From sequence record OQ446694.1: 64,000 nt of DNA. The stretch is one strand, 5' to 3'. The position numbers and the translations under genes were made by a program. Below the pieces are notes generated by a model. It saw only the letters and a program-made list of their open reading frames with translations, ran no database searches and was not told where the DNA came from. Shown here piece by piece: positions 1 through 57,316 of this stretch (position 1 is its first letter; each line of letters starts with the position of its first letter). The DNA is from Escherichia phage Killian.

Positions 1-29
1 CAAGATTTCGGCTATTATTAAGAGGACTT

Positions 30-2978
30 ATGGCTACTTTAAAACAAATACAATTTAAAAGAAGCAAAACTGCAGGTCAACGCCCTGCTGCTTCAGTATT
101 AGCCGAAGGTGAATTGGCTATTAATTTAAAAGATAAAACAATTTTCACAAAAGATGACTCAGGCAGTGTTATAGAATTAGGTTTAAAATATGGAGGAACA
201 ATTGATGGTTCTTTAACTGTTAATGGAAGTATAATTGGAAATTTAACAGGTAACGCTGCAACTGCAACGAAATTGCAAACACCTAGGAAAATTAATGGTA
301 TATCTTTTGATGGGTCAAAGGACATTACCTTAACTCCATCTGACATAAATGTCAATAGCACAACATTTATAAAAAATAACGGCGAATTACCTGTTGACGC
401 TAATTTAGATGAGTATGGGCCTGTTGAAGAATATCTTGGAGTTTGGTCGAAATCTACTTCAACAAATGCGCAACCTGCAAATAAATTCCCAGAAGAAAAT
501 GCCGTAGGTGTATTAGAAGTATTTGTGGCCGGTCAATTTGCTGGTACTCAGAGATATACTGTAAGATCTGGTAACGTATATGTTCGATCTTTGTCTGCTA
601 AATGGAATGGTGTTAATGGTCCGTGGGGTGTGTGGCGTAATGTTCAAGCGTCAACTCGTCCACTTTCACAAACGATTGACCTTGATAGCTTGGGAGAATT
701 AGAACATTGTGGCTTATGGCGAAACAGTTCAAGCGCAATCGCATCATTTGATCGCCATTATCCAGAAGAAGGATCAGCCGCACAAGGATTTTTAGAAATA
801 TTTGAAGGTGGTTTATACACGAGAACGCAGCGTTATACTACCCGCATGGGTATGGTTTATACTCGTTGTCTCGCTGCTGCATGGGATGCTAGTGCACCTA
901 AGTGGGAGGAATGGAAGCAGGTTGGTCATGGCACACCAGCGACTTTCTATGATGGAGATCTGAATGATTTTAAAACTCCTGGGTTATATAATATTTTAGG
1001 CACTGATGCCGTTATTAACTGCCCTACAGGTGAAGGTTTACCAGCCGTTATTGTTGGTTTGCTGGAAGTTAAACAGCGTGCTTCTGGCGGTGCTATTTTC
1101 CAAAAATTTACTACTGCCGGAACAGGTGCAACTACCCGCGATCGTATTTTTGAGCGCGCATATACTGGTGGCGCGTGGGGTGCATGGAACGAAGTATATA
1201 CATCTTATTCTCTGCCAATTACTTTGGGTATGGGTGGCATTAAAGCTCAATTAGCGGAGTTAGATTGGCAAACCTTTGATTTTGTCCCTGGTAGTATGTT
1301 TAGCGTTCCTTTGAACAAAATAAAGAACATGCCAGCAAATATGGATTGGGGGACGATTGACGGAAACTTGGTTATGTTTTCTGTCGGTCCTAGCGAACAT
1401 ACTAGCACAGGGCGTACTGTTCAGGTTTGGCGTGGTACTGTATCCCAGACAAACTACCGTTATTTTGTCGTTCGTGTATTCGGTAATTCAGGAAATAGAA
1501 CTTGCACAGTTCGTCGTGTTGTTCTTGAAGACGGATCACATACTTGGACTGCTCAACAAAACTTTAGGGGATTGCTGAATATCACTGCTGCTGTTAATCT
1601 TGGCGCTAATCAGAAAATTTCACTTGCTCCAGGAGCATATATTCAAGCTCCTGCTAGCGGTTCTGGTTCTAATACTTACGCAAATCAGAATACTACCGTT
1701 GCGCCATTATATCAGGCCATTAACGATTCAAATAAAAACCAGTTTGCGCCAATTGTTAAACAGAAAAACACTGTAACAAATATTACTATGGCTTCTGGTA
1801 TGGATATTGCTAGTTCAGAATATCGTATCGTTGCTCAGGGTGATTTATCCGCTACTGGAACTACAGCCACTGAATTAGCTACATGGCGTTTCTTGCCGTC
1901 TGGCCGATTCATGTCACAAAGTCGAGTTTACGCTGGAGCAGCATTCCTTAATACCGATGGTAATATTTCTGGTTCTATCTGGAAGAAATATAATAATGCA
2001 ACCAATTTAGACGCTGCCTTGAATACTCGCCTAGGTAAAGGCGGTGATACGATGACAGGTCGGTTAACAATCAATGCACCTAATGATTCTATTGTATTAT
2101 CAACAACTGCTAGTAATTCTTTGCATATTCGCGGTGACATAGACGGGACTGGTAACTGGTATATTGGCAAGGGTGGTGCTGATAATTCGCTAGCATTTTA
2201 TAGCTATGCTTCTCAGGCGGCAGTACATATCACAAACAATGGTGAGATTGCGTTAAACCCGCAAAATACCGCAATGGTTAACGTTAACCGTGACCGTGTA
2301 CACATTAACGGTTCTGGATGGATTGCTAGACAACCGGGTGATTGGGGCAACCAATGGCGAGTAGAAGCTCCATTATTCGTTGATCATGGTTATGTTAGTC
2401 AAGATAGTTATTATCCTATTCTTAAAGCAAGAAGCGTTATAACCAATCAAGGATATAGCACCGCTGTTGACTTTGGTATGCGTCGTATTCCATCACAGTG
2501 GGGGCAAGCAATCATTCGTGTCGGATCCACGGAGGCTTCTCCTGATGCTGGACACCCACAAGCTGTGTTTGAATTCCATCATGATGGATTCTTTTATACA
2601 CCAGGAAATGGTAGCTTTAGCGATGTGTATATTCGTTCTGACTCCCGTCTCAAGATTAATAAAGAAGAATTAGAATATGGAGCAGTCGAAAAAGTTTGCC
2701 GACTAAAAGTTTATATTTACGATAAAGTTAAGTCTATTAAAGACCGTAGTGTTATTAAACGTGAAGTTGGTATTATTGCTCAGGACCTTGAAAAGGAATT
2801 ACCGGAAGCTGTATCTAAAGTTGAAGTTGATGGATCTGATGTTCTGACAATTTCTAACTCTGCTGTGAATGCTCTTTTAATTAAGGCCATTCAGGAAATG
2901 AGCGAAGAAATTAAAGAATTGAAAACACCTTTCTTCACTAAAATTGCTCGTAAAATTAGCAATTATTTTAAATTCTAA
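30..2978 (+). CDS. 37: Long tail fiber distal subunit gp37 (982 aa) with C-terminal intramolecular-chaperone-like domain
   Basis: N-terminus [13 protein letters not shown]...[16 protein letters not shown] matches the conserved gp37 N-terminus of T4 as recalled; C-terminal ~110 aa ([20 protein letters not shown]...) resembles auto-cleaving chaperone domains of phage fibers; SD AAGAGGA before ATG at 30; lies directly upstream of gp38 and t. Confidence 0.9.
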
Positions 2979-2982
2979 CAAC

Positions 2983-2999
2983 AAGGGGCTTTGCCCCCT
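2983..2999 (+). other. GC-rich stem-loop (AAGGGGC-TTT-GCCCCCTT) between genes 37 and 38
   Basis: Perfect 6-bp G/C stem seen directly in sequence, immediately after gp37 stop; no clear U-tract, so more likely an RNA stability or processing hairpin than a strong terminator. Confidence 0.4.
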
Positions 3000-3011
3000 T
3001 TGGAGAAAATT

Positions 3012-3794
3012 ATGGCAGTAGTTGGTGTTCCTGGTTGGATTGGTAGTTCATCCGTAAATGAAACAGGACAACGATGGATGAGTCAAGCGGCTGGTCAATT
3101 AAGATTGGGTATTCCTTGTTGGATGAGTCAATTTGCAGGTCGCTCAAGAGAAATTATTCACACGCTTGGAGCAGACCATAACTTCAATGGTCAATGGTTC
3201 CGAGATAGATGTTTTGAGGCAGGTAGTGCACCTATAGTGTTTAATATCACTGGAGATTTAGTATCATATTCTAAAGATGTTCCTTTATTCTTTATGTACG
3301 GAGATACACCGAATGAATATGTTCAGTTGAACATACATGGTGTAACGATGTATGGTCGTGGCGGGAATGGCGGTAGCAATAGTCCTGGCTCAGCTGGGGG
3401 TCATTGTATTCAAAATGATATTGGTGGGAGACTAAGAATTAATAATGGCGGAGCTATTGCTGGCGGCGGTGGCGGCGGTGGCGGCGGGTATTATTCTCCT
3501 TTTTCACAAATGAGATTGACCTTTGGCGGTGGCGGCGGTCGTCCGTTTGGCGCACCGGGCGGATCTATTGATATGCAATCAGGAGCAACTGCTGGTACTA
3601 TTTCTGCGCCAGGCGCAGGGTCTGTGAACGGTATCTACAACGGCGGGTCTGGTGGTGAAGTTGGCTCCGCAGGAGGTAGATGTAATATTCGTGGTCAAGG
3701 ATATGAATACGATGGCGGAGCTGCTGGTTATGCCGTCATAGGGTCTACACCGACATGGCAAAACGTTGGAACAATTTACGGACCAAGAGTATAA
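3012..3794 (+). CDS. 38: Tail fiber adhesin gp38, T2-type with glycine-rich motifs
   Basis: [13 protein letters not shown]... N-terminus and repeated polyglycine motifs ([30 protein letters not shown]) are typical of T2-like gp38 adhesins; ATG at 3012 has SD GGAG, whereas the ORF-track start at 2991 is TTG inside the hairpin. Confidence 0.85.
3462..3488. repeat. GGC/GGT trinucleotide repeat encoding the polyglycine tract of gp38
   Basis: ggcggcggt ggcggcggt ggcggcggg read directly; a second shorter GGY run at 3524-3541. Confidence 0.8.
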
Positions 3795-3825
3795 TTTTGA
3801 ATAAATATCCTTAAAAGGAGGGTCT

Positions 3826-4482
3826 ATGGCAGCACCTAGAATATCATTTTCGCCCTCTGATATTCTGTTGGGTGTTCTAGATCGCTTGTTCAAAGATAAT
3901 GCTACCGGGAAAGTTCTTGCTTCCCGGGTAGCTGTCGTAATTCTTTTGTTTATAATGGCGATTGTTTGGTATAGGGGAGATAGTTTCTTTGAGTACTATA
4001 AGCAATCAAAGTATGAAACATACAGTGAAATTATTGAAAAGGAAAGAAATGCACGCTTTGAATCTGTCGCCCTGGAACAACTCCAGATAGTTCATATATC
4101 ATCTGAGGCAGACTTTAGTGCGGTGTATTCTTTCCGCCCTAAAAACTTAAACTATTTTGTTGATATTATAGCATATGAAGGAAAATTACCTTCAACAATA
4201 AGCGAAAAATCACTTGGAGGATATCCTGTTGATAAAACTATGGATGAATATACAGTTCATTTAAATGGACGTCATTATTATTCCGACTCAAAATTTGCTT
4301 TTTTACCAACTAAAAAGCCTACTCCCGAAATAAATTACATGTACAGTTGTCCATATTTCAATTTGGATAATATCTATGCTGGAACAATAACCATGTACTG
4401 GTATAGAAATGATCATATAAGTAATGACCGCCTTGAATCAATATGTTCTCAGGCGGCCAGAATATTAGGAAGGGCTAAATAA
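3826..4482 (+). CDS. t: Holin T (218 aa)
   Basis: MAAPRISFSPSDIL...ARILGRAK is near-identical to T4 holin as recalled; single N-terminal TM segment; SD AAGGAGGG before ATG. Confidence 0.95.
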   Translation: MAAPRISFSPSDILLGVLDRLFKDNATGKVLASRVAVVILLFIMAIVWYRGDSFFEYYKQSKYETYSEIIEKERNARFESVALEQLQIVHISSEADFSAVYSFRPKNLNYFVDIIAYEGKLPSTISEKSLGGYPVDKTMDEYTVHLNGRHYYSDSKFAFLPTKKPTPEINYMYSCPYFNLDNIYAGTITMYWYRNDHISNDRLESICSQAARILGRAK

Positions 4483-6732: not shown

Positions 6733-7368
6733 TCACAGTTCAGATGCTACAGTGATTACAGCTTCAATGTTTTCTGCCGAGCGTTTAATGTCAAGATACA
6801 CATTACCGTTTTTAGCGATTTTACATGACATTCCGATATCAGTAAATTTCTGAATATGATGTTCCATCATTTTGTATCCAAAAATTCGCATATTTCCATT
6901 GTTATTAATTTCAAAATTACGAATTCCGTGAGTGCGTTTTTCTAAAATAGCAAGATAGTTACTGCGGTAAGTTTCAACCTTTTTAAGAACAAATCCATTT
7001 TCATCTAAAAGTTTTAGCATAAGGTCTTTATCTTCTTCCATATCAGAAGTAATTTCGCGAGCTTTACGAGTTGCTCGTTTTTTCAGCAGTTCCGGAGCGT
7101 TTTCCTGTGCGTATAAAGTTGCTGCATTTGAAATAATATCCTGAGCTTCACCAGTAATGATTAATCCATCACCAGATTTCTCCACCAGGCCTTTTTTAAT
7201 CAATACCCCAATATTACTATTAACTACTGCGTTACCTAAATCTGGATGCACCTCACGAACTTCTGCAGCTGTAATGAAATCTTTCTTAGCAATGGTAATT
7301 AAAATCGCAGCAGTTTTTTCATTCAGAATATCGTTAGAAGCTTTGATGATGTAAGTTACTTTAGACAT
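6733..7368 (-). CDS. motA: Middle transcription activator MotA (211 aa)
   Basis: MSKVTYIIKASNDILNEK...AVITVASEL matches T4 MotA as recalled; SD GGAG. Confidence 0.95.
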   Translation of the reverse strand: MSKVTYIIKASNDILNEKTAAILITIAKKDFITAAEVREVHPDLGNAVVNSNIGVLIKKGLVEKSGDGLIITGEAQDIISNAATLYAQENAPELLKKRATRKAREITSDMEEDKDLMLKLLDENGFVLKKVETYRSNYLAILEKRTHGIRNFEINNNGNMRIFGYKMMEHHIQKFTDIGMSCKIAKNGNVYLDIKRSAENIEAVITVASEL

Positions 7369-7406
7369 TTTAATCTCCGTTTCAGTTCATTTATTTGATA
7401 GGTCTA

Positions 7407-7435
7407 TAGTATCATGTTTAAAGCAGAAGTAAACA
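7407..7435 (-). promoter_or_regulatory. Early sigma70-type promoter upstream of motA
   Basis: Minus strand reads GTTTAC-17 nt-TACTAT, followed by a conserved leader and SD; module repeated elsewhere in the window. Confidence 0.55.
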
Positions 7436-7473: not shown

Positions 7474-7701
7474 TTACTTAATGTTCAGATTACGAACTTC
7501 GATTTCGTCTTCATGGGCAAAATCAAACTGTTTGAATTCTGTGTCACCTTTAAATTTAAAAATCATTGTGAAGAAAGTCAGAACACCAGGTTTTTCTTCA
7601 CGAACTCCACAGATATCATATTCAATACCATCTACAACCAGTTTGTTAGCAGTCAGAGCATTTTTAGCTTTAACGATTTCGTTTTCGATTTTAAATTTCA
7701 T
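7474..7701 (-). CDS. Hypothetical protein (75 aa)
   Basis: ORF track, ATG start with SD GGAG; lies between 52 and motA. Confidence 0.5.
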   Translation of the reverse strand: MKFKIENEIVKAKNALTANKLVVDGIEYDICGVREEKPGVLTFFTMIFKFKGDTEFKQFDFAHEDEIEVRNLNIK

Positions 7702-7750
7702 TTTTTGTATCTCCGGGTTGTTTGTTTCAGTTCATTTATTTGATAGTTGT

Positions 7751-7780
7751 ATAGTACCACAGTATGCTTTGGTTGTAAAC
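7751..7780 (-). promoter_or_regulatory. Early sigma70-type promoter
   Basis: Minus strand GTTTAC...TGgTACTAT; shares a 21-bp leader repeat with the motA promoter module. Confidence 0.55.
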
Positions 7781-7810
7781 CGTTTTGTGAAAAAATTTTT
7801 GAAATAAAAA

Positions 7811-7832
7811 AGGGAGAGCCGAGGCTCTCCCT
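7811..7832 (-). terminator. Rho-independent terminator hairpin
   Basis: GGGAGAGCC/GGCTCTCCC stem followed on the minus strand by UUUUUAUUU. Confidence 0.6.
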
Positions 7833-10743: not shown

Positions 10744-10857
10744 TCACATAAATCCAAAGTAAGCGTTTAATACATCAATCATTAAAACGATTGGGAATAT
10801 ACTCAAAACTACTAGTATTATAACTACATTCCATATAGCTTTAACAATCTTTTTCAT
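10744..10857 (-). CDS. Hydrophobic micro-protein (37 aa)
   Basis: ORF track 10744..10992 trimmed: the upstream part contains a promoter; ATG at 10857 has SD GGAGG; MKKIVKAIWNVVIILVVLSIFPIVLMIDVL... Confidence 0.4.
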   Translation of the reverse strand: MKKIVKAIWNVVIILVVLSIFPIVLMIDVLNAYFGFM

Positions 10858-10885
10858 TTTCTGTTCCTCCGTAGTTGATAGGGTA

Positions 10886-10917
10886 ATAATACCACAGAAG
10901 AACAGTCTTGTAAACAA
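10886..10917 (-). promoter_or_regulatory. Early sigma70-type promoter
   Basis: Minus strand GTTTAC-18 nt-TGgTATTAT. Confidence 0.5.
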
Positions 10918-11182
10918 CTTTTTTAAAAATATTCGTAATAAATGTGAATACCAATCACTACTGCCGAAACTTGCGCAACCCACCACGCACACGCAATAAG
11001 TACAGAATTCAAAATTTTCATAATAACCTCATTACAAAAGTAAATGTTAAACAAATTAATGGAATACTAATTAACCAAACAAAACACCACCATAATGAAC
11101 TCATAGTTCAATCTCAGCGATTTTCATTTCATTACTATTAATAGCCGCTTTAAGACTATCTGAAAGAATTACATTCCAGTGG

Positions 11183-11365
11183 TCATTCATATGGACCATT
11201 AACTAAGCGTGTAATTTCTTCGGGAGTTGAAAAATAAGGCGTATCAGACTCCCAGTGCGATAGTCCCAAGCGAGTATAAATCATACCTTCATCATCGCTA
11301 GAATATTCAACTGACACAAACTCATCAGTTATTTTATGTTTAGCGTAATAAAATTTAAATTTCAT
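11183..11365 (-). CDS. Hypothetical protein (60 aa)
   Basis: ORF track trimmed from TTG to the first ATG. Confidence 0.4.
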   Translation of the reverse strand: MKFKFYYAKHKITDEFVSVEYSSDDEGMIYTRLGLSHWESDTPYFSTPEEITRLVNGPYE

Positions 11366-11370
11366 TTTAC

Positions 11371-11577
11371 TCAATAATCCGCTAAAAGATCGACAATTGC
11401 ATCACGAAGACACTTATTCGCAATACGTTTAAGAGCAATTTCAGTTTCTGGAGCATTTTGAATAATCATTGAATTCAATTCAGCCTCAGCAAACTGAAGT
11501 TCTTTAACTAATTCAGCTTTATATTTTCCTTGCCCTTTCTTAGCTTTTGCTCGTTTTAATTCAGCTGTAGTAAACAT
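11371..11577 (-). CDS. Hypothetical protein (68 aa)
   Basis: ORF track trimmed from TTG to ATG with SD GGAG; MFTTAELKRAKAKKGQGKYKAEL... Confidence 0.5.
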   Translation of the reverse strand: MFTTAELKRAKAKKGQGKYKAELVKELQFAEAELNSMIIQNAPETEIALKRIANKCLRDAIVDLLADY

Positions 11578-11611
11578 TTTATTCTCCAAATCCGTATCAG
11601 TTGATAGTTGT

Positions 11612-11641
11612 ATAGTACCACAGTCCTTGTGGTATGTAAAC
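11612..11641 (-). promoter_or_regulatory. Early sigma70-type promoter with conserved leader
   Basis: Minus strand GTTTAC-18 nt-TGgTACTAT; followed by a 47-bp leader identical to 38765-38811. Confidence 0.55.
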
Positions 11642-11658
11642 TGTTTTGTGAAAATTTT

Positions 11659-12216
11659 TTAAATGGAAAGATACCATCCGCTGTAGTTGCTTTTTCTTAC
11701 AACCTTACGAAGGTCTTCTCTATCACCGATGAACTTCGGAGTGTACTGGATGACACCTGGATGAATTTCTTTAGTGTTGAATATAATTATACAGTCAGCG
11801 ACTTGATGATTTAGAATGGGCCCTAGATTTATTCCAGAACCGTATGGATACTCTCCGCTGCATCCGGTTGTTACCGAAATCCAACGTGAGTCAGTTTGAT
11901 GTGTTTTGACTTCTACACGAAGCCCGCAGTATTTTGGATGCGCCAGTACATCCCACGCATATGTATACGGGTCATTAACATCCTCTTGGCCTTTGTTAAC
12001 ATACCCGCTTAGCCAATCTGCTACAAAAAACTCTGCGTACACCGCGATACGGCATCTTTCGATAACTTCTGCTTTATCCTGATTAGGATTTTGTTTTAAA
12101 GAGTATCTTGCTGTATCAGCAATTTTGACCTTCATTTCACTAGTCAAATCATTGTTCGATAGGGTAAATGTCGGAATCTGAAATAGTCTCTGTAAACCCG
12201 GATTCGTTTTCTGCAT
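11659..12216 (-). CDS. denB: Endonuclease IV DenB (185 aa)
   Basis: 185 aa; position between ndd cluster and rIIB as in T4. Confidence 0.8.
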   Translation of the reverse strand: MQKTNPGLQRLFQIPTFTLSNNDLTSEMKVKIADTARYSLKQNPNQDKAEVIERCRIAVYAEFFVADWLSGYVNKGQEDVNDPYTYAWDVLAHPKYCGLRVEVKTHQTDSRWISVTTGCSGEYPYGSGINLGPILNHQVADCIIIFNTKEIHPGVIQYTPKFIGDREDLRKVVRKSNYSGWYLSI

Positions 12217-12478
12217 TTAGACTTTCCTTTTTACCGCTGAGATAAGCGTTATATACTTTAAGAGTACCATAATAAATTCTGTCATTTTCATCTAAAGACT
12301 CACGGTCGAGTTCATCGAGTTCCTTTTTATCCATGACTATAACATCATTACAGTAAAGAAACCCAAGTTTTTCGTGACCAAACTCAAATTTATTGCAGTA
12401 CACAATATTAGCGTGATGATTTCCGTGTAGATTAATCTCTTTTATGTCGGAATCACCGATATTCATACAATAAATCAT
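12149..12478 (-). CDS. Hypothetical protein (109 aa), denB.1 position
   Basis: ORF track, ATG start; 3-prime end overlaps denB start by 68 nt. Confidence 0.5.
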   Translation of the reverse strand: MIYCMNIGDSDIKEINLHGNHHANIVYCNKFEFGHEKLGFLYCNDVIVMDKKELDELDRESLDENDRIYYGTLKVYNAYLSGKKESLNAENESGFTETISDSDIYPIEQ

Positions 12479-12495: not shown

Positions 12496-12511
12496 AAGGG
12501 CCGAAGCCCTT
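12496..12511 (-). terminator. UUCG-tetraloop hairpin with U-rich tail
   Basis: aagggccgaagccctt; minus-strand RNA forms GGGC-UUCG-GCCC followed by UUGUUUU. Confidence 0.55.
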
Positions 12512-12723: not shown

Positions 12724-12739
12724 AAGGGCCGAAGCCCTT
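12724..12739 (-). other. UUCG-tetraloop RNA hairpin overlapping rIIB stop
   Basis: aagggccgaagccctt immediately upstream of the SD of the next gene; no U-tract. Confidence 0.5.
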
Positions 12740-16104: not shown

Positions 16105-16134
16105 ATTATACCACATCCTTGTGGTAAAGTAAAC
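16105..16134 (-). promoter_or_regulatory. Early sigma70-type promoter (near-consensus)
   Basis: Minus strand GTTTAC-18 nt-TGgTATAAT; the -35 overlaps the gene 39 stop codon. Confidence 0.6.
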
Positions 16135-17951
16135 TACTGGCTCATCCATTCTTTACGAAGATCAGCATTATCTCCCATAAGCATTTCAAAAAGATCTTTC
16201 CAGTTCTCAGGAAGTTTAACAACGTCATAAACTGGGTTCTGAATCATTTCACGGTATTCAGATTTTTCCAAAGAGCCAAGTCCCTTAATATAACGGATGC
16301 TATGTTTAGGTAGAGCATCTTTGGCACTCTCATATTCAGCGACTGTATAAAACCATTCTTGTTTTTTACCGACCTGAGCGATGATTACAGGAGTTTTAAC
16401 AAAACGAATTCTTCCTTGTTCAAACAGTTCTGGCCAATTACTAAAAAATCCGAGCAGAGAAGGATAAATACTTCCTAGACCATCATGGTCGGCATCGGTC
16501 ATAATTGCAATATTATGATAATTCAAGTTTTCGGCTTTTTCACCAAGAACTAATCCAGTGATTGCGCAAATATCAAACAGTTCTTTGTTTTTAAGCATAT
16601 CAGCATAAGACATACCCCAACTGTTGAGAACTTTACCGCGCAATGGATAACCGCCATGAAGTTCTTTATCACGAACATCAATAAGATATCCGATAGCAGA
16701 ATCGCCCTCAGTCAAGAAAAGAGTAGTATCAGCATCTTTACCACAAAGATTCGCTTTGATATGTTTATGAACCTTAGCTTTAGAGGCCTTTTTAGCTGCT
16801 TTAGTTTCTGCTGCCTTTTCTGCCGCCAATTTACGAGCCAAGGCAGCTTCAATAATTGGCATTAAAATTGCTTCATTATTTAAAATAGCACGTGAAATCT
16901 TTTTAGCATCAAGCTGAATATGACTACGGATTTCACCAAATGGAGAAGTCAGACGCTCTTTAGTTTGAGAGTCAAATCGCATGTTTTTCATATCACGAAC
17001 AAACATAACGATAGTCAAACATTCTTTAACACGTGCTTTAGTTACGTCAATTTTAAATTTACGTTTGATTTGTGGAATAAGGTCTTCACAAATATCATCC
17101 ATAACACAGTCAATGTGATGGCCACCATTCTTAGTATGAATGTTATTGACGTATGTTAATTGACGAAAACCATCGGGTGAACGACCAACCGCAATAGAAC
17201 AGTTTTCTTGTTCTTGAACGATAGCATGCTCATCATATTGGCGTGCGTATTTCTTAAAATTACCCTGAACCTTTTTACCATTAAAGGTAAATTGAATATC
17301 AGGATAAACTACTGCAAGTGTCTGGAGACGATCTAGTGTAATGTCAAGATAAACTTGAGATAGCTCATTAGTTTCAAATGACATAAAATCAGGAATGAAA
17401 GTAACACGTGTTCCTTTCCATTTTCCAGGAATATCTTCCCATGATTTATTTTCCATGCCATTTGAACAACGAACTACAATATTATTTTGACCGTCGCCAG
17501 TTTCACCGACAAACATCACAGAAAAAATGTTAGTTAAACTAGAACCAACACCGTTCATACCGCCAGTGACGCGTTCTTTGTCATCACCAAAGTTACCACC
17601 TGCTTTTGGAATAGTCCAGGCAGCAACAGGACCAGGAATTTCTTCACCAGTAGGTGTTTTAACCATCGCTTGTGGAATACCACGACCATTATCTTCAACT
17701 GTTACTTGGTTGTTTTTGATAGTAACATTAATTTTATTCGCGAATTTAAACTTAGTACGAATACCTTCATCTACTGAGTTATCGATAATTTCATCAATAA
17801 GCTTAACAAGACCAGGTACATACTGAACACTTTCCCATTTACCAAACAGAAAGCGCTCATGCATTTCATTAGCGGAAGAGCCAATGTACATGCCGCTACG
17901 CTTTTTGATATGTTCAATATCGCTCAGAATTTTAATTTCATTCTTAATCAT
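16134..17951 (-). CDS. 39: DNA topoisomerase II large subunit gp39, uninterrupted (605 aa)
   Basis: MIKNEIKILSDIEHIKKRSGMYIGS...; GyrB-like ATPase and TOPRIM regions in one ORF; ATG at 17951 with SD GAGGA (track start is GTG one codon upstream). Confidence 0.92.
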   Translation of the reverse strand: MIKNEIKILSDIEHIKKRSGMYIGSSANEMHERFLFGKWESVQYVPGLVKLIDEIIDNSVDEGIRTKFKFANKINVTIKNNQVTVEDNGRGIPQAMVKTPTGEEIPGPVAAWTIPKAGGNFGDDKERVTGGMNGVGSSLTNIFSVMFVGETGDGQNNIVVRCSNGMENKSWEDIPGKWKGTRVTFIPDFMSFETNELSQVYLDITLDRLQTLAVVYPDIQFTFNGKKVQGNFKKYARQYDEHAIVQEQENCSIAVGRSPDGFRQLTYVNNIHTKNGGHHIDCVMDDICEDLIPQIKRKFKIDVTKARVKECLTIVMFVRDMKNMRFDSQTKERLTSPFGEIRSHIQLDAKKISRAILNNEAILMPIIEAALARKLAAEKAAETKAAKKASKAKVHKHIKANLCGKDADTTLFLTEGDSAIGYLIDVRDKELHGGYPLRGKVLNSWGMSYADMLKNKELFDICAITGLVLGEKAENLNYHNIAIMTDADHDGLGSIYPSLLGFFSNWPELFEQGRIRFVKTPVIIAQVGKKQEWFYTVAEYESAKDALPKHSIRYIKGLGSLEKSEYREMIQNPVYDVVKLPENWKDLFEMLMGDNADLRKEWMSQ

Positions 17952-17978
17952 CACTTATCCTCGTTTGGTTTCGGGAAT

Positions 17979-18281: not shown

Positions 18282-18286
18282 AGTTT

Positions 18287-18658
18287 TCACTTAAATTTAA
18301 TGGCTTGAAGGAGACTAATAATTCTCAAGCGACTTCTTTCATCTTTAACTGTAAAAGAAAGAGGGTCACCAGATTTCATAGTGATGGTGCATCCAAAATC
18401 AAAATCTTCAGGAACTTCTTCGAAGAAGTCAAATTCTTCATCATAAATTAGAACATTACTCTGAAAACTGTGAAGAATTTTTCCATCATTTCCAGATGCT
18501 GTACTAATCATTGTAACATTATTACCTTTCATATCTTCAACGATAAATTCGCTTGTAGATATTACGGCATTAATAGAACCATTCCTATAAATAGCAGAAA
18601 ATAGATATTTCTTTTCTTCACCTTCGCGAATGCGATATTTCTTACCAATTTTAAACAT
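18287..18658 (-). CDS. Hypothetical protein (123 aa)
   Basis: ORF track, ATG start. Confidence 0.55.
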   Translation of the reverse strand: MFKIGKKYRIREGEEKKYLFSAIYRNGSINAVISTSEFIVEDMKGNNVTMISTASGNDGKILHSFQSNVLIYDEEFDFFEEVPEDFDFGCTITMKSGDPLSFTVKDERSRLRIISLLQAIKFK

Positions 18659-19468: not shown

Positions 19469-19640
19469 TACAATTTCCTCGTTAATTGAACATTGGAGCG
19501 ATGCGTTTCAGAAGAGTAGCAGCACCTTTGGCAAATTTTCCATTTTATTCTCCAAGTTATTTTCTGTATCAGTAGTTGATATTGATATAGTACCATAATC
19601 AACTACTGATGTATATAGTTTTATGAAAAAATTTTAAACT

Positions 19641-20138
19641 TTATGCATAGCGAGCTTTGCTATAGTGTTTAATCCAACTTTCAGGAATGACTTTGTATGT
19701 TCCTAAAAATACCGCGTTGTACAACTTAACGCCATCTTCTACCCATTGATCGGTAATGTATGCACACATAGCACGAGTACGACGTTTTTGAACAACCCCT
19801 TCTTCATCTTCGGTAAATTCAAATTCATAAGGAGCGACGAACTTAATAGCTTGACCGAGTTTCCACTTAAAGTCTACACCTACATGCGAAGTATCAATCG
19901 TTTCAATTCCTTTGGCAGGAACAGCTTTCAAAAACGCAGATTCAAGAAATTTCGCGCGAACATAGCCAAACTGGGGTTTAGACTTTCCATCTTTAGGAAT
20001 GATACGCACTTTTACTTCAGAATCTTCATCTTTAACGCCGTGTTTAAGCTGAATGCTTACAACTTCAACCAATTTTCCTGCTGCTTTAGAACGGGATTTA
20101 TCAGATACACGAGCAATTTCGCCAATATTAATAATCAT
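19641..20138 (-). CDS. motB: MotB-like DNA-binding protein (165 aa)
   Basis: Size and position upstream of dexA; basic protein. Confidence 0.6.
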   Translation of the reverse strand: MIINIGEIARVSDKSRSKAAGKLVEVVSIQLKHGVKDEDSEVKVRIIPKDGKSKPQFGYVRAKFLESAFLKAVPAKGIETIDTSHVGVDFKWKLGQAIKFVAPYEFEFTEDEEGVVQKRRTRAMCAYITDQWVEDGVKLYNAVFLGTYKVIPESWIKHYSKARYA

Positions 20139-22499: not shown

Positions 22500-22731
22500 A
22501 TTTAATTAGTAATTTACAGACACTTTCATCTAATGTAATTACCGTGTCTGTATTACTGTGATATGATTGTTTTTCAATTCGTTTAATTGCTAGTATAGTA
22601 TCACTTATAAGATTAAGCTTATAAAGGAGCTCAGCTCCTGTTACCATAACACTGAGGTTATCTTGCTTATCAGTATGCTTCTTTATACCATCTATTAGAC
22701 GATTTAAATATTTTGAATTGATGTTAATCAT
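22471..22731 (-). CDS. Hypothetical protein (86 aa)
   Basis: ORF track, ATG start. Confidence 0.5.
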   Translation of the reverse strand: MININSKYLNRLIDGIKKHTDKQDNLSVMVTGAELLYKLNLISDTILAIKRIEKQSYHSNTDTVITLDESVCKLLIKFEEAIRGNN

Positions 22732-22737
22732 ATATCC

Positions 22738-38509: not shown

Positions 38510-38767
38510 TCAAATACAAGTAGTAATTACTCCAGTAGTGCTTACACAGGTATTACCTAATTGAACACCAAGCGTTCCATTAGTATTCATATGAAGATTA
38601 TCATCAATTTTTGTTGATACTTTACCATTCATGTGAATAACAGTATTAGATTCAATCACATTCTGAGTGTCATTTTCAATATCAATAAATGGAACAGCTG
38701 CTAATGCAACTAGAACAACTGCTAATGCAACTAAACACGCTGCTAAACAACCATAAACAATTTTCAT
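38510..38767 (-). CDS. Small membrane protein (85 aa)
   Basis: ORF track 38510..38956 trimmed: its upstream part contains promoter and leader; ATG at 38767 with SD GGAG; MKIVYGCLAACLVALAVVLVALAAVP... Confidence 0.5.
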   Translation of the reverse strand: MKIVYGCLAACLVALAVVLVALAAVPFIDIENDTQNVIESNTVIHMNGKVSTKIDDNLHMNTNGTLGVQLGNTCVSTTGVITTCI

Positions 38768-38811
38768 TTTATTCTCCAAATCCGTATCAGTTGATAGTTG
38801 TATAGTACCAC

Positions 38812-38831
38812 GGAAGAACAGGGATGTAAAT
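38812..38831 (-). promoter_or_regulatory. Early sigma70-type promoter with conserved leader
   Basis: Minus strand ATTTAC...TGgTACTAT followed by the 47-bp leader repeat. Confidence 0.5.
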
Positions 38832-38928
38832 AGTTTTGTGAAAAAATTTTTAATGAATTTACAGGACCTAGAATCATCTATTTTTCTTAAGTATAGATTT
38901 ATATTACTTGTATGAAAAAGGGACCCGG

Positions 38929-38947
38929 AGGTCCCTAGATTTATTCT
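38929..38947 (-). terminator. Terminator hairpin after gene 43
   Basis: GGGACC-UCCG-GGUCCC followed by UUUUUCAUAC on the minus strand. Confidence 0.6.
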
Positions 38948-41703: not shown

Positions 41704-41721
41704 AAGGGGCCGAAGCCCCTT
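41704..41721 (-). terminator. UUCG-tetraloop hairpin after regA
   Basis: aaggggccgaagcccctt. Confidence 0.55.
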
Positions 41722-43649: not shown

Positions 43650-43666
43650 AAGGGCCGAAGCCCTTT
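43650..43666 (-). terminator. UUCG-tetraloop hairpin between 45 and 44
   Basis: aagggccgaagcccttt. Confidence 0.5.
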
Positions 43667-48198: not shown

Positions 48199-48799
48199 GG
48201 TGTCTTTTCCATCCTAATTTAGCTGCTTTTGAAACTAGTTCTTTAATTTTTCCTTTTGTCCATTCAGGACCAGGAGGTTCATGACATAACATTTGCTTAA
48301 CTCCGTTATTATACCATTTTTTACCTTTATTATGTGATGAAGCTTTAAATTTATTTGACCTTCCTTTTACATAACCTTCTGGAATATACGGCAAAAAGGC
48401 AGATTTTCCTGTTAATGGGTCATGTGAATGTATATTTCCTTTACAATTATGAGAACCATATAATGGATGATTTTGTCCTTTAATATCTCTTCCAAATGAA
48501 CCTTTTGGAGCAGCATATGACATATTAAAGAATAATGGATTTTTAACCGCATCATGCAAACGTTGATAATATAGCTCGCATTTAATAGCTTCTTCGCGCG
48601 TATCAAATTCATCTAAAATGCATGAATCAAATAAATGTGGGTTATCTGAAAGTTCTTCATTATAAATTTTCTTATACTTTTTAGATAAAACTGATCCATG
48701 ATATCCGGCTAAATGCCTATCTAAAGATGTAGATCCAATATAAAAAGGAGGAAGTTTATCTCCACTATATATTGTTAAATAAGTTATATATTTTTTCAT
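48176..48799 (-). mobile_element. Free-standing GIY-YIG-like (Seg-type) homing endonuclease gene (207 aa)
   Basis: N-terminal YITYL...FYIGST...EEAIKCE resembles the GIY-YIG catalytic module; NUMOD-like repeats NHPLYGSH and GKKWYNNG; 3-prime end overlaps gene 47 start by 23 nt. Confidence 0.6.
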
Positions 48800-48960: not shown

Positions 48961-48976
48961 AAGGGCCGAAGCCCTT
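48961..48976 (-). terminator. UUCG-tetraloop hairpin after a-gt
   Basis: aagggccgaagcccttt followed by U-rich tract on the minus strand. Confidence 0.55.
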
Positions 48977-51672: not shown

Positions 51673-51750
51673 TTTCACCTCTTAGCTCAATTCATAGATC
51701 TATTATATCATAATATTTGAAGATCTATCTTAAAGCATAGAGGATATCAG

Positions 51751-52020
51751 TTATCTAAGTAAACAGTATGCTTGGAACACTTTCTCCATCATCTTTTTAA
51801 ATTCATGAATATCTATGTAATGACTAGTTAAATCAGCATGATATAAAAAGTCTAAAAACTTTTCATGTGTGCTAACATATTCGCTTTCATTTAATTCAGA
51901 AACATGGCTTTCCCAATATCCAACACCAGTCTTATTTGGGAAAAATGAAATTTTCATGTATTGGTCAACATAGAAAATTCCATAATTTTCAATAGTAATA
52001 GAAATATTAATAAATTTCAT
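51751..52020 (-). CDS. Hypothetical protein (89 aa)
   Basis: ORF track, ATG start. Confidence 0.5.
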   Translation of the reverse strand: MKFINISITIENYGIFYVDQYMKISFFPNKTGVGYWESHVSELNESEYVSTHEKFLDFLYHADLTSHYIDIHEFKKMMEKVFQAYCLLR

Positions 52021-52600: not shown

Positions 52601-52616
52601 AAGGGCCGAAGCCCTT
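52601..52616 (-). terminator. UUCG-tetraloop terminator hairpin
   Basis: aagggccgaagccctt followed by UUUUUUGG on the minus strand. Confidence 0.6.
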
Positions 52617-54690: not shown

Positions 54691-56504
54691 TGGTGTTTAA
54701 CCCTATGCATGATTTCTTTATTTTTGCCGAGATTAAATCCGCGTTCATTCGGATTTCCCAAATAACCACAAGTTCTTCTTATTGTGTTCATCTTTTTAGG
54801 ATCAGTTTCTCCACAAATAGAACAAACAAACCCGTTTTCAGTAGGAGTCATTTCATGGGTACTTCCGCATGTAAAACATTTATCTACTGGCATATTAACA
54901 CCAAAATAATCTAAATGTTGTGCAGCATAATCCCATACAGCCTCAAGACCTTTTAGGTTATTTTTCATATCAGGAAGTTCAACATAAGAAATGTGACCAC
55001 CTGTCGCAATGAAATGATATGGGGCTTCGCGAGAAATCTTTTCAAATGGAGTAATATTTTCTTCTACCGAAACGTGGAAACTGTTAGTGTACCAGCCTTT
55101 ATCGGTAACATCTTTTACACTTCCATATTTTTCGGTATCAAGTTTACAGAAGCGATAGCACAGGTTTTCAGCAGGTGTAGAATACAAACTAAAAGCAAAA
55201 CCGGTTCTTTCAGTCCACTGCTTAAGATGAGCATTCATTTTAGTTAAAATTTCTTGTCCAATATCACGACCGACAAGAATATTCAATTCGTGAATACCAA
55301 TGTATCCTAGGGACACTGAACTTCTACCGTTTTTAAATAACTCAATTATATCGTCATCAGGTTTAAGACGAACCCCGAATGCACCTTCTTGATAAAGAAT
55401 AGGAGCAACAGTCGCTTTAACTCCTTTTAAGGAACTAATTCTACACATCAAAGCTTCAAAACACAAATCCATTCGTTCATTGAACAATTCAGCAAATTTC
55501 TGTTCATTGAACTGTGTTCCAATATAAGAATCTAGTGCAATGCGAGGAAGATTCAGTGTTACAACACCAAGATTATTACGTCCATCAAGAATTTCATTAC
55601 CAGTCGAATCTTTCCATACACCCAAGAAACTACGACAACCCATTGGAGAAACAGGAATAGATGAACCGGTGATAGCTTTATTGTTCTTAGCTGAAATAAT
55701 ATCAGGATACATTCTTTTGCTTGCACACTCTAGAGCAAGCTGCTTAATATCATAGTTTGGATCGTCTTTATAAAGATTAACACCTTCTTCAACGAACATA
55801 ACAAGCTTAGGGAAAATAGGAGTTATCCCATCACGACCAAGACCTTTAATACGATTTTTCAGAATTGCTTTCTGAATCATTCGTTCAGTCCAGTCAGTTC
55901 CCGTACCAAATGTAATTGTTACAAAAGGCGTTTGTCCGTTTGAACTAAAGAGAGTATTTACTTCATATTCATAAGCTTGGAATGCATCGTATACGTCTTT
56001 TTCTGTTTTAGACTGGGCGTAATTCAACGCATCAGCGATTTGCCATTTTTCTGCGTCCTCAATATGTTTTGCGTAGGTGCGTTTAACATAAGGAGAAAGG
56101 ACTTTATCTACATTCGCAAAAGTCGTTCCGCCATATTGATGGGAAGCAACCTGCGCAGTAATTTGTGCCATAATTGCAGTAGCAACGCCGATTGATTTAG
56201 GAGTTTCAATCTGCGCATTACCGAGCTTAAATCCATTCTCAAGCATTCCTTTTAAATCGACTAAACAGCAATTAGTAAAAGGCAATGATATACTGTAATC
56301 TAAATCATGAAAATGAATTAATCCAACATTATGTGCATTTACAATATGACTTGGAAGAATACGACAAGCGATATGTTTAGAAACAATACCGGCCATTAAA
56401 TCTCTTTTTGTTGGAAAGACACGAGAATCTTTGTTGGCGTTTTCGGTATTTAATTCTTTATCTTTATTTGAAATAAAATTTAAAACATCTTTCTCTAAAG
56501 ACAT
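54687..56504 (-). CDS. nrdD: Anaerobic ribonucleotide reductase NrdD, uninterrupted (605 aa)
   Basis: C-terminal zinc ribbon CFTCGS...CSICG and glycyl-radical RxCGY motif; continuous 605-aa ORF. Confidence 0.93.
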   Translation of the reverse strand: MSLEKDVLNFISNKDKELNTENANKDSRVFPTKRDLMAGIVSKHIACRILPSHIVNAHNVGLIHFHDLDYSISLPFTNCCLVDLKGMLENGFKLGNAQIETPKSIGVATAIMAQITAQVASHQYGGTTFANVDKVLSPYVKRTYAKHIEDAEKWQIADALNYAQSKTEKDVYDAFQAYEYEVNTLFSSNGQTPFVTITFGTGTDWTERMIQKAILKNRIKGLGRDGITPIFPKLVMFVEEGVNLYKDDPNYDIKQLALECASKRMYPDIISAKNNKAITGSSIPVSPMGCRSFLGVWKDSTGNEILDGRNNLGVVTLNLPRIALDSYIGTQFNEQKFAELFNERMDLCFEALMCRISSLKGVKATVAPILYQEGAFGVRLKPDDDIIELFKNGRSSVSLGYIGIHELNILVGRDIGQEILTKMNAHLKQWTERTGFAFSLYSTPAENLCYRFCKLDTEKYGSVKDVTDKGWYTNSFHVSVEENITPFEKISREAPYHFIATGGHISYVELPDMKNNLKGLEAVWDYAAQHLDYFGVNMPVDKCFTCGSTHEMTPTENGFVCSICGETDPKKMNTIRRTCGYLGNPNERGFNLGKNKEIMHRVKHQ

Positions 56505-57316
56505 AATTCTAATTTATCCTTTTGAAATTCTTCGTCTAAATATGGGTTCCAACCCATTTTAAACCTTTTGATGAAATTATCAATTCTAAATTTCGGTAAG
56601 TTTAAATCCGCAAAAATAGATGATTTACTTTTAAAATCTGGACCTAAATAATCATATAAAATTTCTGCGTATTTTAACCATAATATACAAGTACCAGATT
56701 TAATTGCTCTCGGAGTTTTCCAAGGTTTTACACCATACATCGGATTTCCACTTCCTTTATGCCTGATAGAAGATGAAATTCCAATTTTAATTTTAGCTTC
56801 CTTTGTATGCGAAAATCCACGATGCGGATTTTCTTTCCAGTATTTTTTAGAAGCTTCTGATATTTTCTTTCTGGCTAAATTAGTATGATGCTTTCCATAA
56901 AATCCATGATTTTTGCCTTTATTACGATTTCTTTTAATCATGGTTATTGATTGCTTTTCTCTAGTTTCTTTAGAAGGAGAAATACCATATGTCGTAAATT
57001 TGCCATCAGCATATGCTAAATTAAAATACTCTTTATTCCATACATCTTTTTCTATATTCTTTTGAAATTCAGCTTCAATGCTAGTTATTTGTTCATCTCC
57101 GACTAATTGAAAATATAATATTTCAACTTTCGGCGTTTCTTTCAACAGGGCTTTTTGAAATTCGGAAGATGACGAAGACGAATAATAAAATTTACCATTT
57201 TTATCAATAATATTCGTTCCGTCAAAAGTGCAATTGGTTTTACTTCCAATATAATAATATGGTGGGGTTTTAGCATTAATTCTACTAATAAATGATAGTT
57301 TATATACTACATTCAT
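56495..57316 (-). mobile_element. Free-standing GIY-YIG-like (Seg-type) homing endonuclease gene (273 aa)
   Basis: N-terminal VVYKLSF...YYYIGSKT and NUMOD-like repeats KNHGFYGKHHT, GSGNPMYGVKPW; overlaps nrdD start by 10 nt and gene 49 stop by 4 nt. Confidence 0.6.

Follow-up and report, generated by a model that had tools for sequence, protein, structure and literature searches.

A 47-nt repeat in a T4-like coliphage lies within a family of early promoters and leaders that very probably double as linker homology

Two sites 27 kb apart in a phage genome share an exact 47-nt string, each running into the start codon of a different small gene, which raises the question of what such a repeat is and how it came to be there. 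We examined this in a 64,000-nt stretch of DNA (the window), in which positions 11575-11621 (copy 1) had been predicted to be identical to 38765-38811 (copy 2). The prediction was exact: the identity covers 47 nt and extends no further on either side, both sites read GTGGTACTATACAACTATCAACTGATACGGATTTGGAGAATAAAATG on the minus strand, and the layout of copy 2 is that of copy 1 shifted by +27,190. This is the longest exact repeat in the window, with no other reaching 47 nt or more. The longest repeats in 20 first-order Markov simulations of the window measured 15-18 nt, and the median longest common run among 16 early-promoter regions of the window was 9 nt. Thus, the identity is far above chance and also above what a promoter consensus demands.

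By its sequence, the window can be assigned to a Tequatrovirus, a T4-like coliphage of the T4/RB14/PST-like kind. Hundreds of T4/RB14/RB32/PST-like genomes match the flanks of both copies at 95-99.9% identity, the nearest relative by these flanks being Escherichia phage UGKSEcP1. Along the minus strand, the genes are arranged as motA, 52, ndd, denB, rIIB, rIIA, 39 ... 42, imm, imm.1, 43, with copy 1 directly 3' of denB and copy 2 between gene 43 and imm.1. The beginning of the window (1-4000) has a GC content of 41.6% and a positive GC skew, as compared to 32-36% and a negative skew in the rest, and carries its long ORFs on the plus strand (30-2978 and 2991-3794). It is probably the late, tail-fibre side, which is oppositely transcribed.

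Copy 1 is preceded on the minus strand by an A/T-rich UP-like element, AAAAAATTTTCACAAAACA (11642..11660), which overlaps the denB stop codon (11661-11659). The core early promoter (11612..11641) consists of a -35 hexamer GTTTAC at 11641-11636, TGG at 11620-11618, and a -10 hexamer TACTAT at 11617-11612, and its spacer contains a 7-bp inverted repeat, TACCACA/TGTGGTA (11634-11616), predicted to form a hairpin. The 47-nt repeat (11575..11621) starts within this promoter, at the TGn/-10 motif (TGGTACTAT), and continues through a predicted +1 (A at 11605), a 28-nt 5'UTR, and the SD GGAG (11587-11584) to the ATG (11577-11575). The gene that copy 1 is predicted to drive is a 68-aa ORF (phrog_4535, 11371..11577, minus strand) of unknown function, which is not present in T4.

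Copy 2 is the orthologue of the T4 imm.1 early promoter. Its UP-like element and core promoter occupy 38802..38851 of the minus strand (UP 38851-38832, -35 ATTTAC 38831-38826, TGG, and -10 TACTAT 38807-38802), with the spacer CTGTTCTTC that is also found in the promoter at 10886. The repeat itself (38765..38811, minus strand) contains a predicted +1 at 38795, the SD at 38777-38774, and the ATG at 38767-38765. This ATG opens an 85-aa predicted membrane ORF (phrog_4189, 38510..38767, minus strand), which lies between the cassette and imm.1 and is present neither in T4 nor in phage Nami. About 88 nt 5' of the copy 2 -35 hexamer, gene 43 is followed by an intrinsic-terminator hairpin with a T-run (38919..38936, minus strand).

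Published T4 early promoters have GTTTAC at -36 to -31 and an A-rich UP element at -40 to -44, or more broadly at about -40 to -60 (PMC2988021). The UP elements are a defining component of the class, which also shows a GT-rich stretch before -12 and has been named "uber" UP/-35/TGn/-10 promoters (PMC2988021). The two copies have the same features: GTTTAC (copy 1) or ATTTAC (copy 2) in the arrangement TTTACA-N17-TACTAT, an extended -10 (TGn) together with a GT-rich stretch 5' of -12 (GTGGTACTAT), and A-rich UP elements (AAAAAATTTTCACAAAAC and AAAAATTTTTTCACAAAAC) directly 5' of the -35 hexamers. As judged by these matches, the repeats belong to strong early promoters of T4 type. Near-identical A/T-rich blocks also stand 5' of the copy 1, 7751, and 38802 promoters.

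The same module recurs across the window. We found 13 matches to GTTTAC-N14-16-TGNTANNNT, all of them on the minus strand, as compared to 0.15 expected, and TGn was present in 13/13. A profile built from the module sites detected about 16-18 such promoters on the minus strand. The description of the minus-strand promoters as one module was thus borne out, while the spacing of 17-18 nt given for it applies only to the -10 hexamer; the distance from GTTTAC to TG is 15 nt, and the overall architecture is an A/T-rich block, GTTTAC, 15 nt, and then TGGTAnnnT. A generic sigma-70 scan was not enriched in the window (57 matches versus 50.6 expected, and 44 versus 41); it was uninformative because the DNA is AT-rich, and only the T4-specific module with TGn stood out.

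Patterson-West et al. placed the start of the early-transcribed imm.1-to-61 region at T4 map unit 27,044. This position coincides exactly with the predicted +1 of the T4 orthologue of copy 2, which is identical from -15 to +5, and the +1 of copy 1 was assigned via orthology to the same map unit. By orthology, this coincidence provides the best evidence that the repeat would comprise a promoter and a transcribed leader. The proposal that the cassettes set expression is likewise in agreement with the match to the T4 early-promoter consensus and with the status of the T4 orthologue of copy 2 as an early promoter.

We evaluated the leader for structure and for processing sites. The leader transcript of 28-31 nt has an MFE of 0 kcal/mol with a z of about +1, longer contexts fold no better than their shuffles, and Rfam returned no family at threshold anywhere in the window. 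Given the MFE of 0 and the Rfam result, we rejected a structured RNA element as the nature of the leader. The strong RegB/S1 cleavage site has the consensus GGAGRAYARAA (Uzan and Miller review, PMC3014915). The leader element GGAGAATAAAA matches this consensus (GG*AGRAYARAA) perfectly and contains the SD GGAG, which is unpaired, lies in an intergenic translation-initiation region, and is followed by the 3' context RAYARAA. The window holds three such sites (11587-11577, 38777-38767, and 19553-19543) versus 0.47 expected, all of them in this leader family. The regB gene itself lies outside the window, and the annotation of the related phage Nami includes a RegB-domain protein. Given the perfect consensus, the cassette appears to couple strong early expression with a RegB-mediated shut-off.

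The leader is not confined to the two copies. T4 carries an identical 21-nt block, TGGTACTATACAACTATCAAC, 5' of ndd.6, imm.1, nrdC.10, nrdC.8, and motA, and has three full leaders: those of ndd.6 and imm.1 each contain one additional ACT, and that of nrdC.10 matches at 46/47 nt. A diverged third member of the family is present in the window between motB and cef (19541..19641, minus strand; -10 at 19592-19587; leader ATCAACTACTGATACAGAAAATAACTTGGAGAATAAAATG). At this site (19469-19641, minus strand), the only ORF between the early promoter and cef is one of 11 codons (MENLPKVLLLF); like MKIAEIEL of T4 (see below), it looks like a remnant left after deletion of a gene 3' of a leader cassette. 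An exact-pattern scan of IMG/VR for the leader returned five loci only, too few for population analysis, and we therefore used the GenBank phage collection, where 346 phage records contain the 47-mer, each with 1-3 copies. At least six different ORFs follow it: the 68-aa ORF, an 8-codon remnant together with ndd.6 (in T4), the 85/78-aa ORF, imm.1 (directly after the cassette in T4 and Nami), nrdC.10 (in T4 and Lutter), and a 49-aa ORF, which in Nami follows the cassette and is itself followed by a DUF4031 gene, ahead of nrdC.10. By their sequence, both 47-nt copies are paralogues within a single sub-family, TGGTACTATACAACTATCAAC..., and part of a dispersed paralogous family that is older than this phage.

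The cassette is also found outside the genus. The Gelderlandvirus STML-198 carries one that is ~94% identical, in flanks that otherwise have no detectable similarity. In this Salmonella phage (1490-1545), the -10 and leader stand without a recognisable GTTTAC -35, 5' of a 59-aa ORF that immediately precedes the nrdC.10 homologue. The nrdC.10 region may thus be the older home of the cassette, or the cassette may cross genera.

Comparison of the family members showed where the shared unit ends. Identity begins at the TGn/-10 motif and stops at the ATG, while the -35 and spacer are specific to the locus. Two spacer types, CCACAAGGAYGTGG and CTGTTCTTC, occur with the leader types in all four combinations, as illustrated by an early promoter at 10853..10941 (minus strand), which has the spacer of copy 2 and the leader CCCTATCAACTACGGAGG...ATG. 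Since all four combinations are present, the family forms the mosaic that is expected of recombination among cassettes. The members differ further in an ACT indel, located in a slippage-prone ACTACT tandem. T4 has the extra ACT at ndd.6, imm.1, and motA, but not at nrdC.10; in the window it is absent from the two identical copies and present in the 19.6-kb member. The denB and gene-43 copies thus have the same indel state within T4, and likewise within the window, while an IMG contig and phage Nami show mixed ACT states and extra SNPs.

Because the cassettes are conserved over ~90-100 nt and border dispensable small ORFs on their 5' side, they may act as linker homology. Elements of this kind are known as PeSLs: units of ~100 nt composed of an AT-rich region, an early promoter, a stem-loop, an SD, and an ATG (Arbiol 2010, PMC2839356; Comeau 2014, PMC4122927), which flank variable ORFs and allow recombination to delete or insert them (PMC2839356; PMC4122927). 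The stem-loop lies just 5' of the promoter in the T4/PST type, and within or overlapping the promoter in other sub-classes (PMC2839356; PMC4122927), and the T4/PST consensus is TTTACW-N17-TAYWAT (Comeau et al. 2014, PMC4122927). In the window, the cassettes consist of an early promoter with an AT-rich upstream region and end in the SD and start codon of an ORF. The 7751 promoter has a strong terminator directly 5' (7832-7811), and the hairpin found ~88 nt 5' of the copy 2 -35 hexamer (38936-38919) would represent the stem-loop of a PeSL-type element. For copy 1, where no terminator hairpin stands upstream and the spacer offers just the 7-bp inverted repeat, the fit to the PeSL definition is only loose.

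The window contains a further set of hairpins, formed by GGCTTCGGCC, which occurs in six minus-strand copies versus 0.01 expected (12499-12508, 12727-12736, 41708-41717, 43653-43662, 48964-48973, and 52604-52613). On the transcribed strand these give AAGGGC(UUCG)GCCCUU hairpins, several with T-runs after them; they look like the extra-stable hairpins with a C(UUCG)G tetraloop, or terminators, that are classic for the intercistronic regions of T4. The six copies constitute a second family of reused regulatory elements in the window.

We compared the window with T4 and other relatives and found ORF presence/absence at four loci (motA, denB/ndd, 43/imm.1, and nrdC.10), with the junctions falling on the edge of the cassette. 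At each of these, variable ORFs lie beside a cassette and the indels are bounded by it. Between T4 and the window, the gains and losses at motA, denB/ndd, and 43/imm.1 end exactly at the cassette, and the extra ORFs of the window, of 85, 68 (+63+32), and 75 aa, stand between the cassette and the T4 gene. These data support the earlier suggestion of recombination-mediated gene shuffling, which corresponds to the published PeSL model.

The 43/imm.1 locus has 268 bp extra in the window as compared to T4, with ATGAAAAT at both ends. At the denB locus, the extra 450 bp extend from the leader ATG to an internal AATGAAATG, with the junction AAT[A/G]AAATG. There, T4 retains the last eight codons (MKIAEIEL) of a phrog_2390 gene joined to the leader ATG and is therefore the apparent deleted form. 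In the window, the phrog_2390 gene (11101-11374, minus strand) is split into ORFs of 63 aa (11183-11374) and 32 aa (11101-11199), while phage ime09 has an intact 87-aa form that differs by one base; the split either reflects a sequencing error or marks a frameshifted pseudogene. The junction of the cassette with the 68-aa ORF is found in about 114 records, and that with the 85-aa ORF in about 119. The two junctions at the 3' end of the cassette share only 8-9 nt of microhomology, which differs between the loci. This points to short-homology or illegitimate joining and not to a crossover inside the cassette.

The motA locus contains one cassette in T4 and two in the window. The upstream unit comprises a terminator, an early promoter, and the leader cassette of a 75-aa ORF (7699..7832, minus strand; hairpin 7832-7811, -35 7780-7775, -10 7756-7751, 23-nt repeat 7746-7724, and ATG 7701-7699). 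The 75-aa ORF (phrog_10955, 7474..7701, minus strand) has a cassette on each side and is missing from T4 with its single cassette. The second unit is the early promoter and leader of motA, the middle-transcription activator (7366..7434, minus strand; -35 7434-7429, -10 7411-7406, 23-nt repeat 7401-7379, SD GGAG 7378-7375, and ATG 7368-7366). The original prediction gave a 21-bp match between 7381-7401 and 7725-7745; the repeat is real, but the register was one base off and the exact identity is 23 nt (7379-7401 and 7724-7746, offset 345), within 36 nt at 92% identity. This 23-nt pair is part of the promoters of the 75-aa ORF and motA and belongs to the duplication of the cassette. Both this pair and the 47-nt pair run into an SD and ATG, as had been noted, and three of the genes concerned are indeed small (68, 85, and 75 aa), while the fourth, motA, encodes 211 aa.

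The product expected from excision of the 75-aa ORF, in which the upstream promoter and the 23-nt repeat would be joined to motA, was found as a one-piece, near-identical match in none of 50,697 phage records. The genomes carried the two-cassette arrangement or, with a different leader, that of T4. Since the excision product is absent from these records and the T4-type leader differs, the motA difference is best read as a cassette-bounded replacement and not as a simple deletion.

The contribution of the cassettes to overall divergence was more limited. The alignment of T4 with the window covered 6.4-64 kb of the latter and contained 18 structural differences. Only three of the 18 touch an early-promoter cassette (0.92 expected, permutation P=0.06). 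All three belong to the TACTATACAACTATCAA sub-family, versus 0.26 expected (P=0.002, a post hoc value). The enrichment of breakpoints at cassettes is therefore modest and suggestive. Six of the 18 differences are homing-endonuclease or intron insertions of T4 (mobA/60, segF, segA, mobB, mobC, and I-TevII).

At the mobA/60 site, the large topoisomerase II subunit is encoded in the window by a single 606-aa ORF (16134-17954, minus strand), while T4 has 1,116 nt extra, comprising the gene 60 / 60.1 / mobA insertion with its translational-bypass segment. The single ORF and the absence of this insertion identify a phage without the gene 39/60 split. Six segments present in the window and not in T4 have no adjoining early-promoter cassette (56446-57312, 48199-48792, 18283-18655, 22507-22737, 12231-12437, and 51746-52005). 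The first of these, 867 nt long and located at the nrdD/49 junction, may represent a mobile endonuclease gene.

The arrangement of the copies also constrains the ways in which they could recombine. As direct repeats separated by 27 kb, the two 47-nt copies enclose the essential genes 39, 41, 61, uvsX, and 42. Because of these genes, a crossover between the copies would be lethal, and a role in shuffling would therefore require either non-reciprocal conversion or exchange, locus by locus, with a co-infecting genome. Exchange is also expected between cassettes that lie near each other, for example the 345-bp pair at motA.

How else might a 47-nt identity have arisen? If selection for an optimal promoter and ribosome-binding site had produced it independently at the two loci, neither shared ancestry nor recombination would be needed. 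The -10, TGn, and SD are indeed functionally constrained, and consensus parts are common to all early promoters in the window. Yet at least 12 other early promoters in the window have unrelated leaders, with the median longest run at 9 nt, whereas the 47/47 identity spans non-consensus positions, and a third locus, as well as another genus in which the flanks cannot otherwise be aligned, carries the same string. We consider such convergence extremely unlikely. Slightly more credit, at a level that is still very low, can be given to a cis-regulatory RNA leader (a riboswitch, attenuator, sRNA target, or operator) of co-regulated genes, conserved for its function and not through recombination. 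Conservation of the leader exceeds that of the promoter spacer and of the neighbouring coding DNA, even in Gelderlandvirus, and the perfect RegB/S1 consensus of the leader makes a co-regulated shut-off plausible. Against this, it is only 28 nt long with an MFE of 0 and no Rfam match, and RegB needs just GGAG and an A-rich 3' context; moreover, such a leader overlaps with the promoter-and-linker explanation and does not exclude it.

The repeated insertion of ORFs at the same point of several loci, immediately behind the leader ATG, could also bring to mind the site of a dedicated mobile-DNA enzyme, such as a homing endonuclease or an integron-like recombinase, and Arbiol et al. liken PeSL-plus-ORF units to integron cassettes. 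However, the inserted ORFs encode small proteins of unknown function with no associated integrase or recombinase, the 8-9-nt microhomologies vary by locus, and the rearrangements attributable to homing endonucleases lie elsewhere. We regard this possibility as close to negligible. A bolder version of the linker reading has somewhat more to recommend it and is still doubtful: the -10-to-ATG leader, and not the whole promoter, would be a self-standing, dispersed "plug-in" that combines strong initiation and a perfect RegB shut-off site with an integron-style, promoter-proximal landing pad, where ORFs are captured repeatedly at the start codon through ATGAAAAT-type microhomology and gene conversion keeps the copies identical.

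Together, the data very probably reflect a family of T4-type early promoters with 5' leaders that double as PeSL-like linker homology. In each cassette, an A/T-rich UP element would be followed by the -35 hexamer GTTTAC, the extended -10 (TGGTACTAT), and an unstructured 5'UTR of 28 nt that ends in GGAG and ATG. Right after infection, unmodified host sigma-70 RNA polymerase would fire the cassette promoters, transcription would begin at the A seven bases past the -10, and the open leader would permit efficient translation. A cut by the RegB/S1 endoribonuclease at GGAGAATAAAA could then shut early expression off again. At the level of the genome, the cassettes would provide portable "linker" homology, with ORFs gained, lost, or replaced just 3' of a cassette or between two of them. 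We infer these promoter, RegB, and recombination steps for this phage from consensus matches, T4 orthology, and the literature.

For annotation, the cassettes point to the true start codons of small ORFs and to about 16 early transcription units, and they flag as different from T4 the accessory ORFs of 68, 85, and 75 aa. In addition, they are natural, expression-ready insertion points, which could serve the engineering of T4-like therapeutic phages. Both the observation and its interpretation are already known, as T4 early promoters have been studied for decades and PeSL linkers were published in 2010 and 2014. Our additions are modest: the repeated unit runs exactly from the -10 to the ATG and contains a perfect RegB consensus, and insertions occur precisely at the start codon, at four loci.

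The cassettes closely resemble the T4 early promoters of imm.1, ndd.6, nrdC.10, nrdC.8, and motA, with which they share the UP/-35/TGn/-10 architecture, the genomic positions, and a nearly identical leader. They differ from them in the downstream genes and in the -35 and spacer of each locus, copy 2 having ATTTAC and not GTTTAC. As in the T4 targets of RegB/S1, an unpaired GGAG serves as an early-gene SD and is followed by an A-rich tract (PMC3014915); such targets are known in T4 early mRNAs, while the site described here is a candidate, recognised from sequence alone. A broader parallel exists with the conserved promoter/RBS elements reported to flank the internal-protein (IP) genes of T-even phages (Repoila et al. 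1994, as cited in PMC2839356) and with the "linker" sequences of Botstein. As far as these are described in the citing account, homologous early-promoter and translation-start segments there bracket interchangeable small genes, and the IP-gene elements are located at loci other than those studied here.

Another close counterpart is the PeSL. At the denB/ndd locus, ndd.4/.5 of T4 are exchanged for ORF268/269 of PST (Fig. 6A of Comeau 2014, PMC4122927), and PST has the 47-mer at this same locus. Mini-circles have been demonstrated only for RB49/phi1 (Arbiol et al. 2010, PMC2839356). In contrast to typical PeSLs, copy 1 stands without an upstream terminator hairpin, and two of the start-codon junctions found here have microhomology only. 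Like PeSLs, the cassettes of this phage combine an AT-rich region, an early promoter, an SD, and an ATG, at some loci with a stem-loop, conform to the T4/PST consensus, adjoin variable small ORFs, and bound the indels that distinguish related genomes.
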